From positions 23,906 through 87,905 of the forward strand of contig JAGXRZ010000040.1 in assembly GCA_018335585.1 (NCBI GenBank): a DNA stretch of 64,000 nucleotides, given 5' to 3'. Source of the stretch: Selenomonadales bacterium. Lineage in GTDB: Bacteria > Bacillota > UBA994. Position 1 is the stretch's first letter; each line of letters opens with the position of its first letter. This document shows, piece after piece, positions 25,486-34,809 of this stretch. A program made the translations under genes and the position numbers. The notes beneath the pieces were generated by a model. That model did not search any database, was not told the origin of the DNA, and saw only the letters and a program-made list of their open reading frames with translations.

Positions 25486-26733
25486 GTGCGGGTTTTACTT
25501 TTGGGGAACGGTGCGCGTGAACACGCCTTGGCCTGGAAGATAGCCGAAAGTCCTTTGCTTTCCGCGCTTTACACGGCGCCGGGGAACCCAGGCACGGCAC
25601 TTTTCGGCGAAAACATCGCCTGCGACATTTGCGACCCGGCCGCAGTTACCGCGCTGGTGCGGCAGTTAGAAGTAGACTTATTAGTCGTCGGAGGCGAAGC
25701 CCCGTTAGCGGCCGGCGTTGCCGATGCCGTCAGGCAAGGCTACCCCGCTTGTGTAGTGTTTGGCCCGGGTAAGCTCGGTGCCGAGCTCGAGTGGAGCAAA
25801 GCCTACGCTAAAGCCTTTATGCGGCGATACCACTTGCCGACGGCAGATTACCGCTGCTTTGCTAACGCCGCCAAAGCGCGTAAGTTTCTGGCCACAGCGC
25901 CGCTGCCCATCGTGGTAAAAGCAGACGGTTTGGCGCAAGGCAAGGGCGTAGTGATTGCTAAGACGCGCGAAGAAGCGCTAGCCGCGCCGGATGCCTTGCC
26001 GGCGGGAGGAAAAGTCATTGTCGAGGAATATCTCGTAGGGCGCGAGGCTTCGGTGTTTGTGCTTACCGACGGGCAGCGCTTTCACGTGCTGCCGCCCACA
26101 GAAGACCACAAACAGCTCGGCGACGGCGATACGGGCCCGAATACAGGCGGCATGGGGGCTTACGCTCCGGTGAGTTATTGGAATGAAGAGTTGCAGGCAG
26201 AGGTTGAAGAAATTGTTATGCAGATCATAGTAGGCCTCTGCGCTGAGGACAGGGACTATCGCGGCGTGATTTTCCTTGGGTTAATGATAACAGCCACCGG
26301 CATTAAGCTCCTGGAGTTTAACGCGCGTTTTGGCGACCCCGAGTGCCAAGTGCTGATGGCTAAGCTTGCTGACGACGTGTTGCCTTACTTGTACCAAGCG
26401 GCAAGCGGGAAATTACCACTTAGCCCTCCACAGTGGAGTCACGAGTACGTAGCCCTGGTGGTGGCCTGCGGGGCGGAGTACCCGGCGGCCCCGTCGCGCG
26501 GCGTGCCGATTACGGGCATCAGAGCGGCGGAGGCCTCAGGTTGTCTGATATTTCACGCCGGTACAGCGCGCGCGGGCGAGACGCTTGTCACCAACGGCGG
26601 ACGCATTCTTAATGTCGTGGGACGCGGCGAGACCCTAGCGTCCGCCCTCGCTAAAGCCTACAATGGAATTGGCGCGATTAGTTTTCCCGGCATGCACTAT
26701 CGGCGAGATATTGGCAGACGAAAGGAAGCGTGA
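25486..26733 (+). CDS. purD: Phosphoribosylamine--glycine ligase PurD
   Basis: ATP-grasp enzyme with VRVLLLGNGAREHALAWK N-terminus; GAGGGAGGG RBS 6 nt before GTG 25486 (ORF opens at 25429 inside purH). Confidence 0.9.
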   Translation: MRVLLLGNGAREHALAWKIAESPLLSALYTAPGNPGTALFGENIACDICDPAAVTALVRQLEVDLLVVGGEAPLAAGVADAVRQGYPACVVFGPGKLGAELEWSKAYAKAFMRRYHLPTADYRCFANAAKARKFLATAPLPIVVKADGLAQGKGVVIAKTREEALAAPDALPAGGKVIVEEYLVGREASVFVLTDGQRFHVLPPTEDHKQLGDGDTGPNTGGMGAYAPVSYWNEELQAEVEEIVMQIIVGLCAEDRDYRGVIFLGLMITATGIKLLEFNARFGDPECQVLMAKLADDVLPYLYQAASGKLPLSPPQWSHEYVALVVACGAEYPAAPSRGVPITGIRAAEASGCLIFHAGTARAGETLVTNGGRILNVVGRGETLASALAKAYNGIGAISFPGMHYRRDIGRRKEA

Positions 26734-26737
26734 GTAC

Positions 26738-27229
26738 ATGCAAACGCTAGTTGCCGTGATTATGGGCAGTACCTCAGACTGGCCGATTATGCAGGAAGCT
26801 TGCCGCATTTTGCGCGAGCTAGAGGTACCTTACTTAGCTAAAGTCGTCTCTGCCCACCGCACGCCGGAACTGATGGCCGATTTTGGCCGCGCGGCTGTCG
26901 CGCAGGGACTCCGCGTGATTATTGCCGGAGCGGGCGGCGCCGCACACTTGCCGGGCATGGTAGCAAGCCACACAGTGTTGCCCGTTATCGGGGTGCCTAT
27001 CCCGACCGAGCATTTGCGCGGGCTAGACTCGCTGCTCTCGATTGTACAAATGCCGGCCGGAGTCACCGTAGCCACGGTAGCCGTAGGCACAGCCGGGGCG
27101 AAAAATGCGGCGCTCTTGGCCTGCCAGATACTAGCCCTTTCGGACACGCACCTTCGTGATAAGCTCACGGCGCGGCGAGCGACGGCGCGCGAACAAGTCA
27201 TGGCGACAGAGCTGGAGCTCCTGCCATGA
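26738..27229 (+). CDS. purE: N5-CAIR mutase PurE
   Basis: MQTLVAVIMGSTSDW..., AGGAAHLPG motif; AAAGGAAG RBS before ATG 26738 (ORF opens at 26663 inside purD). Confidence 0.9.
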   Translation: MQTLVAVIMGSTSDWPIMQEACRILRELEVPYLAKVVSAHRTPELMADFGRAAVAQGLRVIIAGAGGAAHLPGMVASHTVLPVIGVPIPTEHLRGLDSLLSIVQMPAGVTVATVAVGTAGAKNAALLACQILALSDTHLRDKLTARRATAREQVMATELELLP

Positions 27230-28359
27230 CTAAACCAAACTCGTCCGCCGCTCTGCGCACAATCCTACCCGGGGGAACCATCGGTATCCTTGGCGGCGGT
27301 CAACTGGGGCGTATGACGGCCATGGCCGCTAAGCAAATGGGTTACCGGGTGGTCTGTTTAGACCCGCAGCCAAACTCCCCCTGCGGGCAGGTCTGTGACG
27401 CCCAGATTCAAGGGTCGTTTGACGATTACACCGCGGCGCGCGCACTGGCGAAGCAGTCCGACGTCTGTGTGTATGAATTTGAGAATATCAATGCTGATGT
27501 AGTGGCAGAGCTAGAGCGAGAGTTTAACGTGCCGCAGGGAAGTTTCCTGTTGCGCGTGACGCAAAACCGCATCAGCGAGAAAGCGCACCTCCGAGAACAG
27601 GGCTTCCCCGTGGTGCCTTATCGCGTGGTTGACGGCCGCGCGGAATTAGCGGCGGCGGCAGAGGAGTTAAAGTACCCGGTCGTGCTTAAGTCTGCTACCG
27701 GCGGCTACGACGGCAAGGGCCAAGCGGTGCTTAGGTCGCCGGCTGACTTAGGAAACGTTACTATCAGCGGCCTCCAGGTGCTAGAAAAGTTCTTGACGTT
27801 AACGGGTGAGGTTTCTGTCGTCGTGGCGCGACGTAGAGATGGTGAAACCGCAGCCTTTCCGGTTGGGGAGAATGTGCATCGCCACAATATCTTACATACT
27901 ACCGTCGTTCCTGCCCGTTTAAGCCAAGCATTGCAGGCCCAAGCCACCGAACTGGCCATAGGCATTGCCGAGTCGCTCGGTGTAGTTGGGCTCCTGGCAG
28001 TAGAGATGTTTCTTACGCCGGAAGGCATTATCGTAAACGAGCTCGCGCCGCGCCCCCATAACTCCGGCCACTACACCCTCGGCGCCTGCGAGACCTCGCA
28101 GTTTGAGCAGTTTGTGCGTGCGGTGTGTAACCTGCCGCTAGGCCCTACAACTCTCCTCTACCCCGCGGTGATGGTCAACATCTTAGGCGAGCATATGGCT
28201 GGTCTTATGACCCAGTTCGCTACACTCCCCCCAAACGTCAAAGTCCACCTTTACGGCAAAAGCGGTACACCTGTCCCGCGACGCAAGATGGGGCATCTGT
28301 TGATTAGGACTGACACTCCAGACCAGACAACCGCTTGGGCGGAAGAGGTGTTAGTCTAA
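27226..28359 (+). CDS. purK: N5-CAIR synthetase PurK
   Basis: 377 aa ATP-grasp protein; overlaps purE stop. Confidence 0.9.
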   Translation: MTKPNSSAALRTILPGGTIGILGGGQLGRMTAMAAKQMGYRVVCLDPQPNSPCGQVCDAQIQGSFDDYTAARALAKQSDVCVYEFENINADVVAELEREFNVPQGSFLLRVTQNRISEKAHLREQGFPVVPYRVVDGRAELAAAAEELKYPVVLKSATGGYDGKGQAVLRSPADLGNVTISGLQVLEKFLTLTGEVSVVVARRRDGETAAFPVGENVHRHNILHTTVVPARLSQALQAQATELAIGIAESLGVVGLLAVEMFLTPEGIIVNELAPRPHNSGHYTLGACETSQFEQFVRAVCNLPLGPTTLLYPAVMVNILGEHMAGLMTQFATLPPNVKVHLYGKSGTPVPRRKMGHLLIRTDTPDQTTAWAEEVLV

Positions 28360-28370
28360 AACACAAAACT

Positions 28371-28399
28371 TTGACATAGGTAAAAAAGAGCAGTATAAT
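28371..28399 (+). promoter_or_regulatory. Consensus sigma-A promoter TTGACA-17-TATAAT driving fic
   Basis: ttgaca taggtaaaaaagagcag tataat, 25 nt upstream of the fic start, immediately after the purK stop. Confidence 0.65.
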
Positions 28400-28423
28400 A
28401 CCTACGTTGAGGAGGTGTGGGTC

Positions 28424-29494
28424 GTGAACGAGCCAAAATTACCTATGTTGCCGCCTCGTGCCGATCTGGAAAGCAGGGCGGCACTTAAGCAGTTGGCCAG
28501 GGCTAACCGCGCTTTAGCTGAACTAAAAGGTTATGCGAGTACGATTCCTAATCAACATATGTTGATTAATGCGGTCATGATTAAGGAGGCCAAGGATAGT
28601 TCAGCTATCGAAAACATAATAACTACACACGACGACCTCTATCGGGCGATGAGTAACGCTGGTAAAGCGAGTATCGCCGCTAAGGAAGTCGTCAGCTATA
28701 GGGAAGCCTTATGGCATGGCTATCAATCGGTCAGAGCAAGGCAAGTGCTCACAACCTCGATGATCATCGAAATCCAAGAAATGATAGAGAAGAATACTGC
28801 TGGTTTAAGGAAGTTGCCTGGAACAGTCTTGCGCAACGAAGCTACTGGTGAGATCGTTTATACTCCACCATCTACCGAGCACGACATTAAACAACTACTG
28901 GCAAATCTAGAGACATACATCAATGAAGACGACGATGATGTAGATCATCTGATTAAGCTCGCGGTCCTGCATTACCAATTTGAAGTTATCCATCCTTTTT
29001 ATGATGGCAATGGGCGCACCGGCAGGATAGTCAACGTCCTGTATCTAGTCTTGAAAGGCCTGCTTGAGAGCCCGGTACTCTATCTGAGTAGTTTTATTAT
29101 CAGGAACAAGCCTGCCTATTACCGTCTGTTACAGGAAGTGCGCACGCATGACAACTGGGAAGAATGGATTCTATACATTCTGACTGGCATAGAACAGACT
29201 GCTGCGGAGACCTTGTTCTTGATAAGAAAGATCAATCAAGAAGCAGAAGCAATGAGCGCAGAGATTCAGGCTAGGCTGCCCAAGATATATTCACAAGAAC
29301 TGATGAGTCTGCTTTTCTATGAGTTCTATACTAAGACCCACTATATAGAGAAGGGCTTGGCGGTAACCAGAAAGACAGCCGTTAGCTACCTATCAGCGTT
29401 AGAGAGGGAAGGCTTTTTGAGCTCAGAAAGAATCGGCAAAGAGCGCATCTACCTCAACCGGAGACTCTACGATTTGGTGAGGGCGGGGCAATAA
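28424..29494 (+). CDS. fic: Fic/Doc family protein, class II (N-terminal inhibitory helix), C-terminal winged HTH
   Basis: Canonical HPFYDGNGRTGR Fic motif; SSAIEN matches the [ST]xxxE[GN] inhibitory motif N-terminal of the Fic core; gene is visibly AT-richer than its flanks; GAGGAGG RBS 8 nt before GTG 28424. Confidence 0.85.
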   Translation: MNEPKLPMLPPRADLESRAALKQLARANRALAELKGYASTIPNQHMLINAVMIKEAKDSSAIENIITTHDDLYRAMSNAGKASIAAKEVVSYREALWHGYQSVRARQVLTTSMIIEIQEMIEKNTAGLRKLPGTVLRNEATGEIVYTPPSTEHDIKQLLANLETYINEDDDDVDHLIKLAVLHYQFEVIHPFYDGNGRTGRIVNVLYLVLKGLLESPVLYLSSFIIRNKPAYYRLLQEVRTHDNWEEWILYILTGIEQTAAETLFLIRKINQEAEAMSAEIQARLPKIYSQELMSLLFYEFYTKTHYIEKGLAVTRKTAVSYLSALEREGFLSSERIGKERIYLNRRLYDLVRAGQ

Positions 29495-29495
29495 G

Positions 29496-30515
29496 ATGAA
29501 CTTCACAAAAATGCACGGCTTAGGAAACGACTTTATCGTCGTCGATATGTTTGACGGGATGGAAATTCTCAAGCCGCATGGTGTTGCGCGCGCTATCTGC
29601 CACCGCCACTTTGGCGTGGGCGCTGATGGGCTGGTGCTAGTCCACCCGTCTGAGCGCGCCGATTGTCGCATGCAAATCTTTAATTCCGACGGCAGCGAGG
29701 CCGAGTCTTGCGGCAACGCCTTGCGCTGTGTGGCGCGGTTTATGCAGCTTAAAGGTAGGGTGCAGGGCACTGCCGTCCGCGTGGAGGCGTTAGCCGGCGT
29801 CTACAGCGCTGAGCTTGTGCCTGCGGCGCACGGCGAGACGCTTGTCAAAGTCAACATGGGTGCGCCATTGCTTCATCCTGCGGCTATCCCAGCCAACGTG
29901 GCAGGCGATGGACCTGTCTTAGACCTGAGTATCTCGACACCCCACGGGGACTTCTCCGGCGTATTAATTAACAGCGGCGTGCCGCATGTCGTCATCTTCG
30001 TCCCGGACCTAGCTGCCTTTGACTTTGTTCCCGCCGGGCAGGCCATTGAGAAGCATCCGCTCTTCCCGGCCGGCATTAACGTAGATTTTGTGCAAGTTAT
30101 TAGCCGCGACTATTTAAAGGTGCTGGTGTGGGAGCGCGGCGCAGGCGCGACGCTAGCCTGCGGCACGGGAGCCGCTGCCGTGGCTGTGGCCGCTAACCTT
30201 ACCGGGCGCGCCGACCGCCGCCTAACGGTAGAGCTGCCGGGTGGTGAGCTCTATATGGAGTGGGACGAAAAGACCGGCCATGTCTATATGACCGGTCCCG
30301 CAGCCGTAGCCTTTACAGGGCATGTGCCACTAGCAATGCTTGTAAAATCATATGTCGTTTGTCCCGACCACCTCGACGAAGCCATTGAGGAATTTCTCGA
30401 TGCCTTCGAGTCGCCCCCGGACATCCACCGGCTAAAAGACATTACCTTTACAGAGTGGACGGCGCCTCCTGCCTGCCACTTTTGTTCACGTGCGCCGGAG
30501 TTTTTGGTGGTCTAA
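29496..30515 (+). CDS. dapF: Diaminopimelate epimerase DapF (with ~55-aa C-terminal extension)
   Basis: NSDGSEAESCGNALRC and GTGAAAVAVAA DapF catalytic-Cys regions; ATG 1 nt after the fic stop with no obvious RBS; continues ~55 aa past the usual DapF C-terminus. Confidence 0.85.
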   Translation: MNFTKMHGLGNDFIVVDMFDGMEILKPHGVARAICHRHFGVGADGLVLVHPSERADCRMQIFNSDGSEAESCGNALRCVARFMQLKGRVQGTAVRVEALAGVYSAELVPAAHGETLVKVNMGAPLLHPAAIPANVAGDGPVLDLSISTPHGDFSGVLINSGVPHVVIFVPDLAAFDFVPAGQAIEKHPLFPAGINVDFVQVISRDYLKVLVWERGAGATLACGTGAAAVAVAANLTGRADRRLTVELPGGELYMEWDEKTGHVYMTGPAAVAFTGHVPLAMLVKSYVVCPDHLDEAIEEFLDAFESPPDIHRLKDITFTEWTAPPACHFCSRAPEFLVV

Positions 30516-30995
30516 GTGAAGATTACGATTGTCGCCGTAGGCACCTTAAAAGAAATCTTCTGGCGAGAAGCGGCTAAGGAATACCTAAAGCGCCTTGCCG
30601 GCTATGCGCACGTCGCGATTACAGAGCTTCCCGAATGCCGCGTAGGGCAAGACGCAAACGCCGGCGACGAGGCGCGAGCGCGCGCAGCGGAAGCACAGGC
30701 CATCGCTAAGGCCGTACCCCAAGGGAGCGTGCCAGTCCTTTTGGCCATTAACGGCGAGCAGCGGAGCTCCGAGCAATGGGCCGAATTTTTCGCCGCAGAG
30801 CAACTCGCGTCGCGCTCACATCTCACCTTTATAGTCGGCGGCTCGACCGGCGTCGCCGACAGCGTGAAATCTTTGTCTCACCACCAGTTCTCCCTCGGCC
30901 CGCTTACTCTTCCCCACCAACTCGCACGCATCGTCCTGCTCGAGCAAATCTACCGCGCGTTTCGCATTCTGCGGAATGAGCCGTACCATAAGTAA
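30516..30995 (+). CDS. rlmH: 23S rRNA (pseudouridine1915-N3)-methyltransferase RlmH
   Basis: 159 aa SPOUT protein ending ...QIYRAFRILRNEPYHK, typical of RlmH; GTG start abuts the dapF stop. Confidence 0.85.
   Translation: MKITIVAVGTLKEIFWREAAKEYLKRLAGYAHVAITELPECRVGQDANAGDEARARAAEAQAIAKAVPQGSVPVLLAINGEQRSSEQWAEFFAAEQLASRSHLTFIVGGSTGVADSVKSLSHHQFSLGPLTLPHQLARIVLLEQIYRAFRILRNEPYHK
30840..30865. repeat. Direct repeat copy 1 (ggctcgaccggcgtcgccgacagcgt), inside rlmH 3' region
   Basis: 21-bp exact (26-bp near-exact) match to 31960-31985. Confidence 0.8.
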
Positions 30996-30996
30996 C

Positions 30997-31030
30997 GGCG
31001 AGCCCTGACAGGACTCGTCATTTTTTCTCT
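30997..31030 (+). terminator. Rho-independent terminator after rlmH
   Basis: Imperfect stem ggcgagccctg / caggactcgtc followed by ATTTTTTCTCTT. Confidence 0.55.
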
Positions 31031-31148
31031 TGTAGGCTATATTCTCCCTACACATTCAGCTCAGTTGAAGATACTTACTGCTATTGCGTTCTAGAGAAGG
31101 GAAATAGTAAGCCTTCGACGAATAGAGCTTTGATAGGGAGGTGTTGTG

Positions 31149-31943
31149 ATGGAAGCTAAGTGGAAGCGCGACGCCATCATACGCTACAGTGCGGTCGTAT
31201 GTATTGCGGCTCTAGTCATGTCTAATGTCTGGTTGATGATTAAGGTAAACGATCTTATACGTGCGATTGGTTCTTTGCCGAGGCATATTCCGAGTCCTAC
31301 CACCTACGTCAACCTCAGCCCCTTGTATACAGGGGTTGTTGACGAGCGTGTTCTGATGGTCTCGGAAACGATGGGCGAAAAACTAATAGTTAGATACAAC
31401 TTCACCCTCACGGAACGAATTCCCGGTTACGTCTTAGTTGTCCGCTTTAGAGCAAGTCAGACAGCCGCTTGGGAACAAGTTCGCCCCGCGCCTCTCTACG
31501 GGCTGGAATACGAAGCCTTCCTTCACGTGAATCCGGCTCTCAGCTATGAGTACCAAGTTGTTCAAATGCTTGGAGACCAAGTCATGAGGGCCACCACCCC
31601 AGGCTTCATCAAAGTTGGTGAATGGGTGGGGACCTCCACCTTAAACATCGTGCGGTCCGGTTATCCCAACGAACGTAAGGTGCGAGTCGCTGTGTACCAG
31701 CCGCAATTTTCGGCGCTTAGAGCTTGGCAGGTAGATAAGGTCACTATCAAGCTCGACAATGCGCCTGAGGCAGTCGTTCTCGAAATGTTTCGCGGCGATC
31801 TAACCGGTTACAAGTTCGATGAAACAGTCTACCAGGCAGCTAGAGCGGTGACAGTCACCGCCTACTACGGGGATGGCGAGACCCGTAGTGTGACATTCGA
31901 CCCGCACAACCATTTCGAGCAACCGATAATAAGACGCGATTAG
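31149..31943 (+). CDS. Hypothetical membrane-anchored exported protein
   Basis: N-terminal hydrophobic anchor (YSAVVCIAALVMSNVWLMI) then ~230-aa domain with no recognisable motif; AGGGAG RBS; AT-richer than core genome. Confidence 0.55.
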   Translation: MEAKWKRDAIIRYSAVVCIAALVMSNVWLMIKVNDLIRAIGSLPRHIPSPTTYVNLSPLYTGVVDERVLMVSETMGEKLIVRYNFTLTERIPGYVLVVRFRASQTAAWEQVRPAPLYGLEYEAFLHVNPALSYEYQVVQMLGDQVMRATTPGFIKVGEWVGTSTLNIVRSGYPNERKVRVAVYQPQFSALRAWQVDKVTIKLDNAPEAVVLEMFRGDLTGYKFDETVYQAARAVTVTAYYGDGETRSVTFDPHNHFEQPIIRRD

Positions 31944-31959
31944 GAATAGGCGGTGGGAC

Positions 31960-31985
31960 GGCCTGACCGGCGTCGCCGACAGCGT
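31960..31985. repeat. Direct repeat copy 2 (ggcctgaccggcgtcgccgacagcgt)
   Basis: Matches 30840-30865; together they bracket the rlmH 3' end plus the hypothetical gene 31149-31943. Confidence 0.8.
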
Positions 31986-32041
31986 TTTGCGATCATGTCC
32001 CCGCTCAATACGGGGTGTGTTCCGGAAGGAGTCTTGGATTA

Positions 32042-32773
32042 ATGAAGAACAGCGACATTCTTGAGGATGTTTCTTGTCTGACTGCGAAGGCTGTTGCTCA
32101 CTATTGGGGAACGCGAACAACGCAGAGACAGAAACAAGAACATAGCGGTAAGATCGACCAGGGCCTACGCAGCGCAGTAACCGGAGGAGCCCAGATGGAC
32201 GGTTTCATTGATCTGGTTGTTGAACTAGTAGTGCGAGCCGGAATCCCTGAACGATGCATATTTAGAAAGAAGTCTGTTGAGCTCCCCGGCTACTTTAGGC
32301 CAACCAAAGAGTGGGATCTACTTGTTGTTAAAGAACAGACTTTGGTTGCTGCAGTTGAAGCTAAGTCACAGGTGGGCCCTTCATTCGGTAACAACTTTAA
32401 CAATCGAACTGAGGAAGCGCTAGGTAGCGCGGTTGATCTCTGGACTGCCTATCGAGAGAATCTTTATCTATCAAGTCCTCAACCGTTCTTAGGTTTCCTC
32501 TTCATGCTGGAAGACTGCAAGGCCTCGAACAGACCTGTCATGGTTCAGGAACCGCATTTCGAGGTTGCCAAGGAGTTTATCGGGGCGTCCTATAAGCGCA
32601 GATACGAGTTGCTTTGCCGAAAACTAGTCCTTGAAAGGCACTACACAGCCTCCGCATTTCTCGTATCGTCAACTGACAGAGGTAGTGCAGGAACCTTTAC
32701 CGTACCGGCGGAGGATCTATCTGTTGAGCGTTTCGCTAGAGTGTTAGTCAGCCATCTCGGAGCATTTGTATGA
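32042..32773 (+). CDS. Type II restriction endonuclease-like protein (PD-(D/E)xK fold, BamHI/BglII-like)
   Basis: WDLLVV...VEAKSQ acidic/EAK block and SFGNNFNNRTEEALG resembling the BamHI catalytic region; directly coupled (ATGA overlap) to a DNA methyltransferase; GGAAGGAG RBS before ATG 32042. Confidence 0.5.
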   Translation: MKNSDILEDVSCLTAKAVAHYWGTRTTQRQKQEHSGKIDQGLRSAVTGGAQMDGFIDLVVELVVRAGIPERCIFRKKSVELPGYFRPTKEWDLLVVKEQTLVAAVEAKSQVGPSFGNNFNNRTEEALGSAVDLWTAYRENLYLSSPQPFLGFLFMLEDCKASNRPVMVQEPHFEVAKEFIGASYKRRYELLCRKLVLERHYTASAFLVSSTDRGSAGTFTVPAEDLSVERFARVLVSHLGAFV

Positions 32774-33687
32774 AGCCAGTACAGACGACGCACAGGCTTG
32801 TCAATGGCGACGCACGAGATCTCTCATTCCTCAGTGATGCGTCTGTCCATCTGGTGGTAACTTCGCCCCCCTACTGGAATCTCAAGCGGTATAACGAGAG
32901 CCCCGGTCAGATGGGCCACATACAAGATTATGAGACGTTTCTCCTAGAGCTTGAGAAAGTGTGGAAGCAGGTGTACCGTGTCCTAGTTCCGGGCGGTCGC
33001 CTGGTGTGCGTTGTTGGCGACGTCTGTGTTTCTAGGCGCGAGTTCGGACGCCACTTAGTTTTCCCGCTCCATGCGGACATTGCAGTTATCTGCCGCCGTA
33101 TGGGGTTTGACAACCTTAACCCGATAATTTGGCATAAGATTACCAACGCTTCTTATGAAGTTGCCAATGGCTCGAAATTCCTCGGCAAGCCGTATGAGCC
33201 GAATGCGATTATCAAGAATGACATTGAGTTCATCTTGATGCAACGCAAACCTGGAGGTTATAGGAAGCCAAGCGAGTCGCAACGAGAGGCAAGCAAGATC
33301 AGCAAAGAAGACTTTGACCGCTGGTTTCAACAAATGTGGCACATTCCCGGCGCGTCAACAAAGCACCATCCAGCACCGTATCCATTAGAGCTCGCAGCGC
33401 GTCTGGTGCAAATGTTCTCATTTACCGAAGACACAGTGCTCGACCCCTTTTGTGGCTCCGGCACCACTATGGTCGCCGCACTAAGGGCCGGACGTAACAG
33501 CATTGGGATTGAGATTGACCCCCTCTATTGCCGCATGGCGGCGCAGTATCTAAAGGCTGAGAGCAACAACCTGTTCTCTGCTAACAGCACACTGCTCTTT
33601 GAGAGGTCTTCCGTTGAAGCTACCGGAGCCCTAAGAGAGGACGATGCCCTTTATGAAGTACGCGCTGCCAAGAAGAGACTCGAATAG
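32770..33687 (+). CDS. DNA methyltransferase, beta-class (motif IV SPPY before motif I DPFCGSGTT), probably N4-cytosine
   Basis: TSPPYWN (motif IV) near N-terminus and VLDPFCGSGTT (motif I) near C-terminus; this order defines beta-group amino-MTases, and SPPY is usual for N4C enzymes. Confidence 0.8.
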   Translation: MKPVQTTHRLVNGDARDLSFLSDASVHLVVTSPPYWNLKRYNESPGQMGHIQDYETFLLELEKVWKQVYRVLVPGGRLVCVVGDVCVSRREFGRHLVFPLHADIAVICRRMGFDNLNPIIWHKITNASYEVANGSKFLGKPYEPNAIIKNDIEFILMQRKPGGYRKPSESQREASKISKEDFDRWFQQMWHIPGASTKHHPAPYPLELAARLVQMFSFTEDTVLDPFCGSGTTMVAALRAGRNSIGIEIDPLYCRMAAQYLKAESNNLFSANSTLLFERSSVEATGALREDDALYEVRAAKKRLE

Positions 33688-33717
33688 GATGCGCTGTCCG
33701 CCACAGCGATGGTGGGC

Positions 33718-34116
33718 TTACTTTACCGCCACCGTCTTCGTCCAGCCGGTGAAACCTAGCACGTACCGCACTACTACCGCCCGCCCGTCCTTCTGTAGAT
33801 AACCAACCAACAGCACTCGGCGGTCCTCATCGTGTAGGATAAGTGGCGGAAACCGCGTCGTTTCCCGATACTCCCTTTGAGCGTCTTGAATGGCTGCATG
33901 CATTAAGGCCTCTCCTGTTAGACCTGCCACATGGAGTGTCGGCATCTGGCTCCAGTTTGTGACAACCTCGTACCTGCCGAGGTCAATTTCGTGCTTTTCC
34001 ACGAGCTGGCGGTGCGCTTCCCTGACCTGGTCCTCCGTAGGCTCTAGGGTGTTAGGAGCGATTGGGCTGCCGAGGTCAGGAGCGGCGGCATCCCACTCTG
34101 GCAAAGAGAACCCCAA
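33718..34116 (-). CDS. Hypothetical protein (132 aa)
   Basis: Open frame convergent with the MTase; no recognisable motif; overlaps the protease-like fragment by ~40 bp. Confidence 0.35.
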   Translation of the reverse strand: MGFSLPEWDAAAPDLGSPIAPNTLEPTEDQVREAHRQLVEKHEIDLGRYEVVTNWSQMPTLHVAGLTGEALMHAAIQDAQREYRETTRFPPLILHDEDRRVLLVGYLQKDGRAVVVRYVLGFTGWTKTVAVK

Positions 34117-34626
34117 TCAGCTTGCCGTTCTGCACGATTGGGCTACCGCTCATGCCTGGCTCAATTCTATCCTTCGCATGTAGCGGAGATACGAGTAGCA
34201 ACTGCTCGCCGCGGAACTGCATATACCCGACTACCCTTACCGTAAAAGGGCCAGCAGCTCCCGGGAGAACTGTGGCAACCTCTCCCACAACGATGTCCGC
34301 GGTGCCGCCTAGCCGAATAAGTTCCGTGTTGACGCGGGTTCCTTTAGGCATGCCCAGTGTAACGCCCTGGTCGCTATTGACCAGCACCTTGACATTGCAG
34401 AAGATGACGTTGTCGCTCTCTGCCCGCCAAGTCCGACTTCTCGGTCCGGGGCCTGCACTTCCCAGTAGGGAGAAAGCGTTGGATCTGTGGCCATAGATAG
34501 TGCCATGCTCCACCCAAGCAGCAGAAGCCCTAAGACGTTAAGGCCAACGAAAGCCAGCACGAGCTGAGTAGTTCTTCGCATGAAACACCACCCCCAAACG
34601 ACTGAAGTGCATGTAATATATTCCAC
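34076..34626 (-). pseudogene. SpoIVB-like (peptidase S55) serine peptidase fragment, apparently frameshifted/truncated
   Basis: Two overlapping same-strand ORFs in different frames. 34309-34626 encodes a signal/TM segment (MRRTTQLVLAFVGLNVLGLLLLGW). 34076-34513 encodes EPGMSGSPIVQNGKLIGV, matching the SpoIVB catalytic-Ser block (GMSGSPIIQNGKVIG), but ends ~20 aa later. No single intact frame. Confidence 0.4.
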
Positions 34627-34721
34627 TCACAGGCGGATAACTCCTTCATAATTAACAAACAGCTCCTCTACGCCCAATAGGCATATCCCGTGTCATTGTC
34701 CGCCTTAAACACAACCCCCTG

Positions 34722-34756
34722 CAGTAATCTCCTGCAGGGGGGTCTGTTATCTTGAT
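34722..34756 (-). terminator. Hairpin terminator downstream of the FMN-binding gene
   Basis: ccccctgcag..ctgcaggggg 10-bp stem; on the minus strand followed by TTGTGTTTAA. Confidence 0.4.
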
Positions 34757-34809
34757 GGCCAGAGGGGGCTCAGTTCATGTAGGCTGCGCCGCAGCCTTTA
34801 TTTTGTCTA

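Follow-up and report, generated by a model that had tools for sequence, protein, structure and literature searches.

A SoFic-type fic gene with its own promoter and candidate operator between purK and dapF in an uncultured Bacillota lineage

The fic gene between purK and dapF

We analysed a fic gene that lies between purK and dapF in a 64,000-nt stretch of contig JAGXRZ010000040.1 (positions 23,906 to 87,905; assembly GCA_018335585.1, 'Selenomonadales bacterium'). This whole stretch is called the window, and all coordinates refer to it (Table 1). The plus-strand purine operon purF-M-N-H-D-E-K ends at the region studied, and a consensus promoter, a Shine-Dalgarno (SD) sequence and fic follow before dapF begins. 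A sequence-only reading of this DNA had described fic as richer in AT than the genes beside it, and the composition profile bears this out: GC content and GC content at third codon positions (GC3) are 0.462 and 0.521 for fic, compared with 0.576 and 0.643 for purK and 0.584 and 0.650 for dapF. Among 22 genes scored, only a nearby XhoI-type endonuclease gene has a lower GC3 than fic.

The first start codon in the list of open reading frames (ORFs) is at 28415. We rejected the resulting 359-aa longest ORF as the fic product, because the ATG of the homologues aligns with the GTG at 28424, which is taken as the start. The protein deposited at NCBI, MBS3985286.1 ('Fic family protein', 349 aa, from a Selenomonadales bacterium metagenome-assembled genome (MAG)), begins seven codons downstream of this GTG; the deposited start is probably too short, and the GTG preceded by AGGAGG is preferred. 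At the other end, a single G (29495) separates the fic stop from the dapF ATG, the 1-nt gap that had been read from the letters. Other junctions nearby are similarly tight, with purE and purK overlapping in ATGA (27226-27229) and dapF, here fused to yyzF, abutting rlmH as TAAGTG (30513-30518). Since tight junctions are common in the operon, the 1-nt gap fits the local style.

Table 1. Features at the purK-fic-dapF locus (window coordinates)
Feature	Position	Strand	Remarks
purK	27226..28359	+	last pur operon gene; Pfam ATP-grasp/PurK_C; TAA 28357-28359
Inserted segment, 1143 bp	28353..29495	+	relative to fic-less relatives; replaces a 73-bp stretch (purK tail and 56-57 nt spacer with dapF SD)
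Sigma-70-type promoter TTGACA-17-TATAAT	28371..28399	+	-35 28371-28376, -10 28394-28399; 12/12 match
Candidate operator	28374..28407	.	inverted repeat ACATAGGTA (28374-28382) / TACCTACGT (28399-28407), 16-nt spacer; overlaps -35 and -10
fic SD, AGGAGG	28410..28415	+	8 nt before GTG start; -15.3 kcal/mol; GGAGG conserved in homologue alignment
fic, 356 aa	28424..29494	+	SoFic-type class II Fic; Pfam, PADLOC and PDB matches
Inhibitory-helix motif SSAIEN (SxxxEN), aa 59-64	28598..28615	+	inside Fic_N; Glu63 aligns with SoFic E73 (SSEIEN)
Fic active-site motif HPFYDGNGRTGR, aa 190-201	28991..29026	+	His190 aligns with SoFic H198; fits HxFx(D/E)GNGRxxR
G-rich SD-like tract GGTGAGGGCGGGG	29476..29488	+	in last fic codons (VRAG); 7 nt before dapF ATG
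Stop/start junction TAA-G-ATG, fic/dapF	29492..29498	+	TAA 29492-29494, ATG from 29496; identical in all same-species contigs and L185
dapF::yyzF fusion, 339 aa	29496..30515	+	DapF core to about 30331; novel 19-nt joint 30332-30350; YyzF/CxxH-CxxC domain 30351-30515
rlmH (SPOUT methyltransferase)	30516..30995	+	GTG abuts dapF::yyzF stop; end of the 89-99% block common with L185

Insertion of fic in place of the purK-dapF spacer

Relatives of the window were located through DapF homologues and exact-protein look-ups, and the comparison of purK-dapF junctions that had been suggested for this locus found relatives without fic. In L095 (DapF 89% identical) the order is purK, 57 nt, dapF, yyzF and rlmH; in L096 (78%; a 'Firmicutes bacterium' MAG) it is purK, 56 nt, dapF and oadB; and in L097 (81%) dapF is followed by oadB, a gene for 44 aa and rlmH. 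All three loci have a spacer of 56-57 nt after purK, in which a canonical AGGAG(G) and then 5 nt precede the dapF ATG. Aligned with L095 by blastn, homology of the window ends at 28352 and restarts exactly at 29496, so that 1143 bp stand in place of 73 bp. The left junction touches purK, whose final two codons and stop are at or inside it. Because three fic-less relatives keep an SD-bearing spacer and the breaks in homology are sharp, segment 28353-29495 is an insertion relative to the fic-less relatives. The closest homologues of the Fic protein, 75-78% identical, come from Clostridia, Heliophilum and Eubacteriales-type sources, and DapF is about 50% identical to that of those groups. With the empty sites, the foreign composition and these nearest homologues, the claim that fic was horizontally acquired at this position is well supported, and the observation from which it started was largely right.

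The cassette carries no visible means of movement: no recombinase, integrase or transposase gene lies beside fic in the window or in four homologous contexts, where flanking direct repeats were not searched with a tool. In these four contexts, all in long contigs, the homologous fic is solitary and placed among unrelated housekeeping genes. By exact-protein look-up the species of the window occurs in many metagenomes, and all its contigs have purK-fic-dapF; an intact fic of 356 aa was read in 24 contigs from many samples. A scan of reference genomes with PurK reached relatives of at most 58% identity among the matches listed, mostly Bacillales, and in these neither dapF nor fic occurs in the 10 kb after purEK.

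A class II Fic protein of the SoFic family

Pfam domains cover most of the product, with Fic_N (PF13784) at aa 21-101 (E 4.8e-28), Fic (PF02661) at aa 109-208 (E 1.4e-18) and the SoFic-like_C winged helix-turn-helix (wHTH; PF21248) at aa 275-348 (E 1.9e-19). The PADLOC SoFic model matches at full length (378.5 bits, E 9e-114, positions 11-359 of 361), and the PDB structures of Shewanella SoFic (S. oneidensis, 3eqx/9tc4) match aa 4-351 at E about 1e-81, with 43% identity over 345 residues. A further PDB entry, 7xux, a 380-aa 'Fido domain-containing protein', matches aa 55-258 at E 1.3e-12; it may be CccR of Yersinia pseudotuberculosis, and if so, the sequence relation of CccR to the window Fic is distant. 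In the Engel/Goepfert classification, class II Fic proteins have the canonical Fic motif and, on a helix N-terminal to the core of the same polypeptide, the motif (S/T)xxxE(G/N). The window protein has HPFYDGNGRTGR as its core motif and SSAIEN N-terminal to it in the same polypeptide, both intact; the sequence-only reading had noted them in proposing an auto-inhibited class II Fic. By its domains and motifs the fic product belongs both to the class II Fic proteins and to the SoFic architecture family, and it is not a close orthologue of the model SoFic. That reading had not remarked that the family is already catalogued, as anti-phage and EF-Tu-AMPylating SoFic; the product itself stands in NCBI as 'Fic family protein'.

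SoFic is known as a stand-alone Fic-domain protein that forms an anti-phage system in a substantial fraction of genomes (10.1101/2022.05.11.491447). The E. coli member, EcSofic, is toxic, requires dimerisation and is counteracted by AS1, a small downstream protein (PMC12249575), and SoFic of S. oneidensis (SO_4266/MloA) both AMPylates and deAMPylates EF-Tu at switch I (10.64898/2026.07.09.737422). The window protein resembles these in the order of its parts, namely Fic_N with dimerisation and inhibitory helices, the Fic core and the C-terminal wHTH. It also keeps SxxxEN (E63 for E73) and HPFxDGNGRTGR (H190 for H198) and, among the residues that serve dimerisation in SoFic, the salt-bridge pair E26 and K32 (E16 and K22) and L31 (L21). 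As with SoFic, the gene stands alone behind an AT-rich upstream region, which in SoFic is reported to be bound by the protein. In contrast, the window gene sits in a core operon and not in a defence island, and its operator is defined by comparative sequence alone. Moreover, EcSofic has an AS1-like small gene (about 47 aa) downstream, whereas dapF begins 1 nt past the window fic stop; no AS1-like antitoxin gene was found downstream of fic, where the only small plus-strand ORF nearby is one of 29 aa with a TTG start inside dapF. In the contexts examined, fic homologues have unrelated genes downstream.

A looser likeness links the window gene to Doc/Phd of phage P1 and to the class I FicT/FicA pairs, whose Fido-fold toxins modify a core factor and block growth, with self-regulated expression; Doc phosphorylates EF-Tu. 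Those systems have two genes with a separate antitoxin, whereas the window gene encodes the inhibitory helix together with the DNA-binding domain in one polypeptide.

The fic promoter and a candidate operator

The TTGACA-17-TATAAT promoter that had been called textbook in the sequence-only reading agrees with consensus at all 12 positions, its -35 box 11 nt past the purK stop; no other exact match occurs in the 64 kb, and 100 shuffles gave 0. The same perfect promoter stands ahead of the fic homologues L101-L106, L108, L111 and L126. It is bracketed by an inverted repeat, and the form ACATAGGTA-N16-TACCTATGT brackets the same promoter with homologous fic genes in unrelated genomes. When the 77 nt upstream of 24 fic homologues (65-78% protein identity, different contexts) were aligned, mean column identity was 72%, and the -35 box, both arms of the repeat, the -10 box and GGAGG were 90-100% conserved, with the consensus TTTTACCTATAT..A-TTGACATAGGTAAAA-ATAGCGATATAATACCTATGTAATGGAGGTG..ATG. 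The pattern ATAGGTA-N12-16-TACCTA occurs once in the window, with 0 occurrences expected by chance. In L110 both arms are altered together (CATGGGTA / TACCCATG), and distant subfamilies (42-45% protein identity) have different palindromes in that position, such as ACGTGTCGCC...GGCGACACGT. The sole gene that always accompanies the palindrome is fic. A generic count of inverted repeats proved weak and was set aside: among 61 homologues, an 8-nt repeat with one mismatch or none was present at 52 loci, and ~28 would be expected in shuffled AT-rich DNA. Thus the argument for an operator rests on the position-specific conservation in the 24-locus alignment. On that alignment the promoter was transferred with the cassette, and a conserved palindrome, the candidate operator, overlaps it.

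CccR, a wHTH-Fic protein, represses its own promoter via inverted repeats near -35 and -10 (PMC9755527), and the SoFic dimer of S. oneidensis binds its own gene's upstream DNA, in the first 100 bp (10.64898/2026.07.09.737422). These results, with the constant company of palindrome and fic, lead to a reading of self-repression: by analogy, the wHTH of a Fic dimer most likely binds the palindrome and represses an otherwise very strong promoter. Like the window protein, CccR is a class II Fic with a C-terminal helix-turn-helix, and its dimer binds two inverted repeats near -35/-10, where the window likewise has arms that overlap both boxes; the CccR boxes are 10 bp long and 26 bp apart, and the window arms 9 bp long and 16 bp apart. 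CccR differs in being secreted, as an effector of the type VI secretion system that is both class II FIC toxin and transcription factor. The literature so far places SoFic binding only somewhere in those 100 bp, and the comparative data give a concrete and testable candidate operator, (A)CATAGGTA-N16-TACCTATG, often in two copies ~41 bp apart.

Another arrangement was seen in a distant SoFic subfamily (L143-L160, Fic 50-54%), in which an upstream region of ~130 nt holds a unit like TTGACAACGTGGGTAAAAAACGGCAAAATTTGGACA, repeated in tandem two to four times, and the ATG stands ~6 nt after a TAAAAT box. This suggests a leaderless mRNA and multiple operators in the subfamily, whose members mostly come from samples with contig names starting Ga0209755, JGI24694 or Ga0099364.

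The fic/dapF junction and translation of dapF

The sequence-only reading had held that dapF has no ribosome-binding site (RBS) of its own, which does not stand as worded. There is no canonical AGGAGG, but a G-rich tract, GGTGAGGGCGGGG, precedes the start, and the 20 nt before the dapF ATG pair at -10.2 kcal/mol with an assumed canonical Bacillota anti-SD sequence. Only 2.7% of random 20-mers of the window reach this value, and the other 21 genes scored, at -4.0 to -16.4 kcal/mol, span it. The dapF SD of the fic-less relatives gives -12.1 to -12.4 kcal/mol, and the same position in 25 fic homologues gives -0.7 to -7.1 kcal/mol. The tract encodes the Fic tail ...VRAGQ, and the commonest tail among the homologues is ...VKYGQ (5/25), each followed by the stop. 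The tail reads KAGQ in L185 and RAGQ in the window, and the changes from KYGQ to KAGQ to RAGQ are absent from the 25 homologues. Hence it appears that the dapF SD, lost at the replacement, was rebuilt inside fic; GC amelioration alone may also account for the tract.

The further idea, that dapF translation may depend on fic, had rested on the supposed lack of an RBS and is therefore weakened by the SD-like tract. Termination-reinitiation coupling at TAAgATG is still plausible, but it is not obligatory. Folding of the junction RNA (z = 0.38) gave no sign that the dapF start is masked or exposed by structure. As for transcription, no promoter-like or terminator-like site was found on the plus strand between 28400 and 29500, nor in the empty site of L095. 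Thus dapF was probably read from the pur transcript originally, and is now probably transcribed from both the pur operon and the fic promoter (P_fic). The idea that the dapF ATG and second codon came from the donor (AAC in the window, CAA in the relatives; L110 also has TAAGATG) was rejected, since the same junction in L185 is followed by the native CAG.

Exchange between lineages

Another lineage, represented by L185 and L186, has the same junctions, with the order purK-fic-dapF-oadB-44aa-yyzF-rlmH. The purK gene of L185 ends with a TGA that is itself part of the fic promoter's -35 box, TTGACA. Between L185 (5746-10896) and the window (27226-31002) nucleotide identity is mosaic: 70-78% in purH, purD, purE and purK, 89-92% in the last ~150 nt of purK, 99% in the promoter, 95.5% in fic, 91% in dapF and 89% in rlmH, with homology stopping exactly at the rlmH stop. 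L095, without fic, is 79-83% identical to the window in the pur genes and only 83-84% in dapF and rlmH. The contrast within L185, between pur genes at 70-78% and a fic-dapF-rlmH block at 89-99%, indicates that homologous recombination between lineages has exchanged the block from the 3' end of purK to rlmH, and fic along with it.

Within the window species, fic differs by 1.1% between haplotypes with a divergence of 3.3-4.3% in purK and dapF, and the strains agree fully (100%) in the promoter region; between two strain haplotypes, 12 fic codons differ (7 synonymous, 5 non-synonymous). When window 25486-30330 was compared with L081, divergence was patchy, with identity of 99.9-100% for purD and purE, 96.7% for purK, 98.9% for fic and 96.6% for dapF, which points to frequent recombination in the population.

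Interpretation and alternative explanations

We consider it likely that 28353-29495 came in by horizontal transfer as a minimal SoFic-type cassette, which replaced the purK-dapF spacer and combines self-repression and a toxic anti-phage role with probable translational coupling and block exchange. The cassette would consist of promoter/operator, SD and fic, beginning at about the -35 box, ending with the stop codon and free of mobility genes, and one lineage of an uncultured Bacillota organism would have received it in place of the spacer. By homology its product would be a dimeric class II Fic AMP-transferase, in which the N-terminal SxxxEN helix restrains AMPylation and the C-terminal wHTH binds the palindrome over its own -35/-10, so that a promoter of consensus strength is self-repressed. 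Following the characterised SoFic, the protein may AMPylate a core translation factor (EF-Tu, at switch I) and act as a toxic anti-phage effector of the abortive-infection type. With no terminator after purK or fic, transcription of dapF-yyzF-rlmH would probably come from the pur operon and P_fic, and dapF would probably be translated by termination-reinitiation at TAAgATG, aided by an SD-like tract evolved in the last fic codons. The cassette, together with its dapF-rlmH flank, would then have moved between related lineages by homologous recombination. Defence, EF-Tu AMPylation, self-repression and coupling are steps that we infer from homology and from the anatomy of the locus.

Several points weigh against this proposal. 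The anti-phage role, the EF-Tu target and the binding of an operator are carried over from SoFic, which is 43% identical, or from the remoter CccR; and phage protection and EF-Tu switch I AMPylation are reported for the E. coli and S. oneidensis members only (10.1101/2022.05.11.491447; PMC12249575; 10.64898/2026.07.09.737422). The window protein scores 393.2 bits with the NCBIfam SoFic equivalog model (NF046030), below the cutoff of 550. AMPylation and DNA binding by SoFic need E26, L28, L31, K32 and L50 (10.64898/2026.07.09.737422), and the dimer/hinge residues L28, I35 and L50 are changed here to R18, A25 and T40; given these positions, the dimer-dependent regulation may differ from that of SoFic. 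The second operator copy that most homologues have ~41 bp upstream is absent in the window, because the 3' end of purK occupies that position. In plasmid and phage collections, 354 plasmid records matched with at least 80% coverage, no plasmid or phage record was more than 60% identical, and no vector or donor was identified. The exchange between the window and L185 may have run in either direction, and the anti-SD sequence assumed for the pairing energy may not be that of the host.

Among other explanations, an ancestral fic at purK-dapF, precisely lost in the fic-less relatives, is highly improbable and was already disfavoured by the comparisons above. The window and L185 have different pur genes yet identical junctions, which could be read as old vertical inheritance. 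However, the three fic-less lineages keep the 56-57 nt spacer and AGGAG(G)-N5-ATG, which a deletion would have had to rebuild; the composition of fic is foreign; the jump in identity between window and L185, from ~72% to 89-99%, runs from ~150 nt before the purK stop through rlmH, as a recombination tract does; and L095 is nearer to the window in its pur genes than L185 is, yet has no fic. A different proposal accepts the insertion and holds that the cassette was kept as a promoter donor, with P_fic freeing dapF-yyzF-rlmH from purine regulation and Fic acting chiefly as repressor and not as toxin. This suits a dapF that in fic-less relatives directly follows purK without a promoter of its own, as well as the sole perfect consensus promoter in 64 kb, its full conservation among strains and the missing upstream operator copy, which could weaken repression; wHTH-Fic proteins do act as transcription factors (PMC9755527). 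We nevertheless think it unlikely, as the catalytic and inhibitory motifs are intact, only those 12 codons differ between the two haplotypes, and the same cassette lies beside unrelated genes elsewhere, hence its selective value is not tied to dapF.

It is also conceivable, though in our view very unlikely, that Fic has no role in phage defence and is either a housekeeping regulator of translation, reversible through AMPylation and deAMPylation of EF-Tu, or a selfish single-protein addiction gene. SoFic is an efficient deAMPylase whose AMPylation is dimer-dependent (10.64898/2026.07.09.737422), several Fic homologues are annotated 'addiction module protein', and the tight dapF junction would make clean loss of fic costly in an addiction-like way. 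Against this, family members that were tested protected against phage (10.1101/2022.05.11.491447; PMC12249575), and a type II restriction-modification islet, inserted independently 1.5 kb downstream in the same lineage, fits a neighbourhood of defence genes.

The acquired-cassette proposal can be carried further, to a defence gene locked to an essential one: the spacer would have been trimmed to 1 nt, the Fic C-terminus rewritten to recreate the dapF RBS, clean loss of fic would strip dapF of both SD and promoter, and fic-dapF-rlmH would spread between species as a unit. We regard this extension as possible but doubtful. If true, genomic entanglement would serve a cassette without mobility genes as a mechanism of both addiction and dissemination. 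In itself the gene is ordinary and of a known kind, with a junction to a core gene that is unusually tight; SoFic-type Fic genes are common and catalogued as defence genes, and a self-regulatory promoter architecture has already been outlined for relatives. The points of interest are modest: an operator from comparative data, an exact spacer replacement, an SD recreated in a foreign gene and a cassette that travels with a core-gene flank. The loci form a natural before-and-after series, which runs from empty sites through a filled site and one where an SD has also re-evolved to a recombinant lineage, and in which a defence cassette without mobility genes can be followed as it enters a core operon and spreads with the flanks. 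In addition, the TAAgATG junction with its overprinted SD would be a compact case of translational coupling created by insertion, which a reporter could test.

The DapF::YyzF fusion and the wider surroundings

The sequence-only reading had noted a C-terminal extension of ~55 aa on DapF. It measures 54 aa (residues 286-339) and is a YyzF/CxxH_BA5709 domain (PF14116, E 5.5e-11; TIGR04129, 44 bits against a cutoff of 35). In L095, L096, L097 and L186, yyzF stands apart as a gene of 55 aa immediately ahead of rlmH, where it usually follows oadB and the 44-aa gene. Comparison of the fusion region (window 30332-30515; L082 7092-8578; L095 4701-4981; L186 1744-3305) indicates that the strain group of the window lost the dapF stop, together with oadB, the 44-aa gene and the SD and start of yyzF, in a deletion that left an in-frame fusion. 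Other strains with an identical Fic protein have dapF (281 aa) followed by oadB, and among the best 120 DapF homologues the fusion is confined to the window cluster. We rejected an assembly error as the source of the 339-aa DapF, because the fusion recurs in independent assemblies, in one of which the protein is 96% identical. The fusion is the product of a strain-specific deletion and is unrelated to the insertion of fic.

A search of the 64 kb (1-64000) with Rfam gave no family at the gathering threshold and no tRNA or rRNA family match; it found no purine riboswitch ahead of the pur operon, and no other known RNA to explain regulation. Downstream of rlmH, a low-GC islet (30999-34781) is absent in L095, which has 86 bp there instead. 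It contains a gene for a 265-aa protein without family match (31146-31943), an XhoI-type restriction endonuclease gene (32042-32773), an N4/N6 DNA methyltransferase gene (32770-33687) and, on the minus strand, small ORFs that differ from strain to strain. Two defence-type insertions, fic and this type II restriction-modification islet, thus flank dapF-rlmH.

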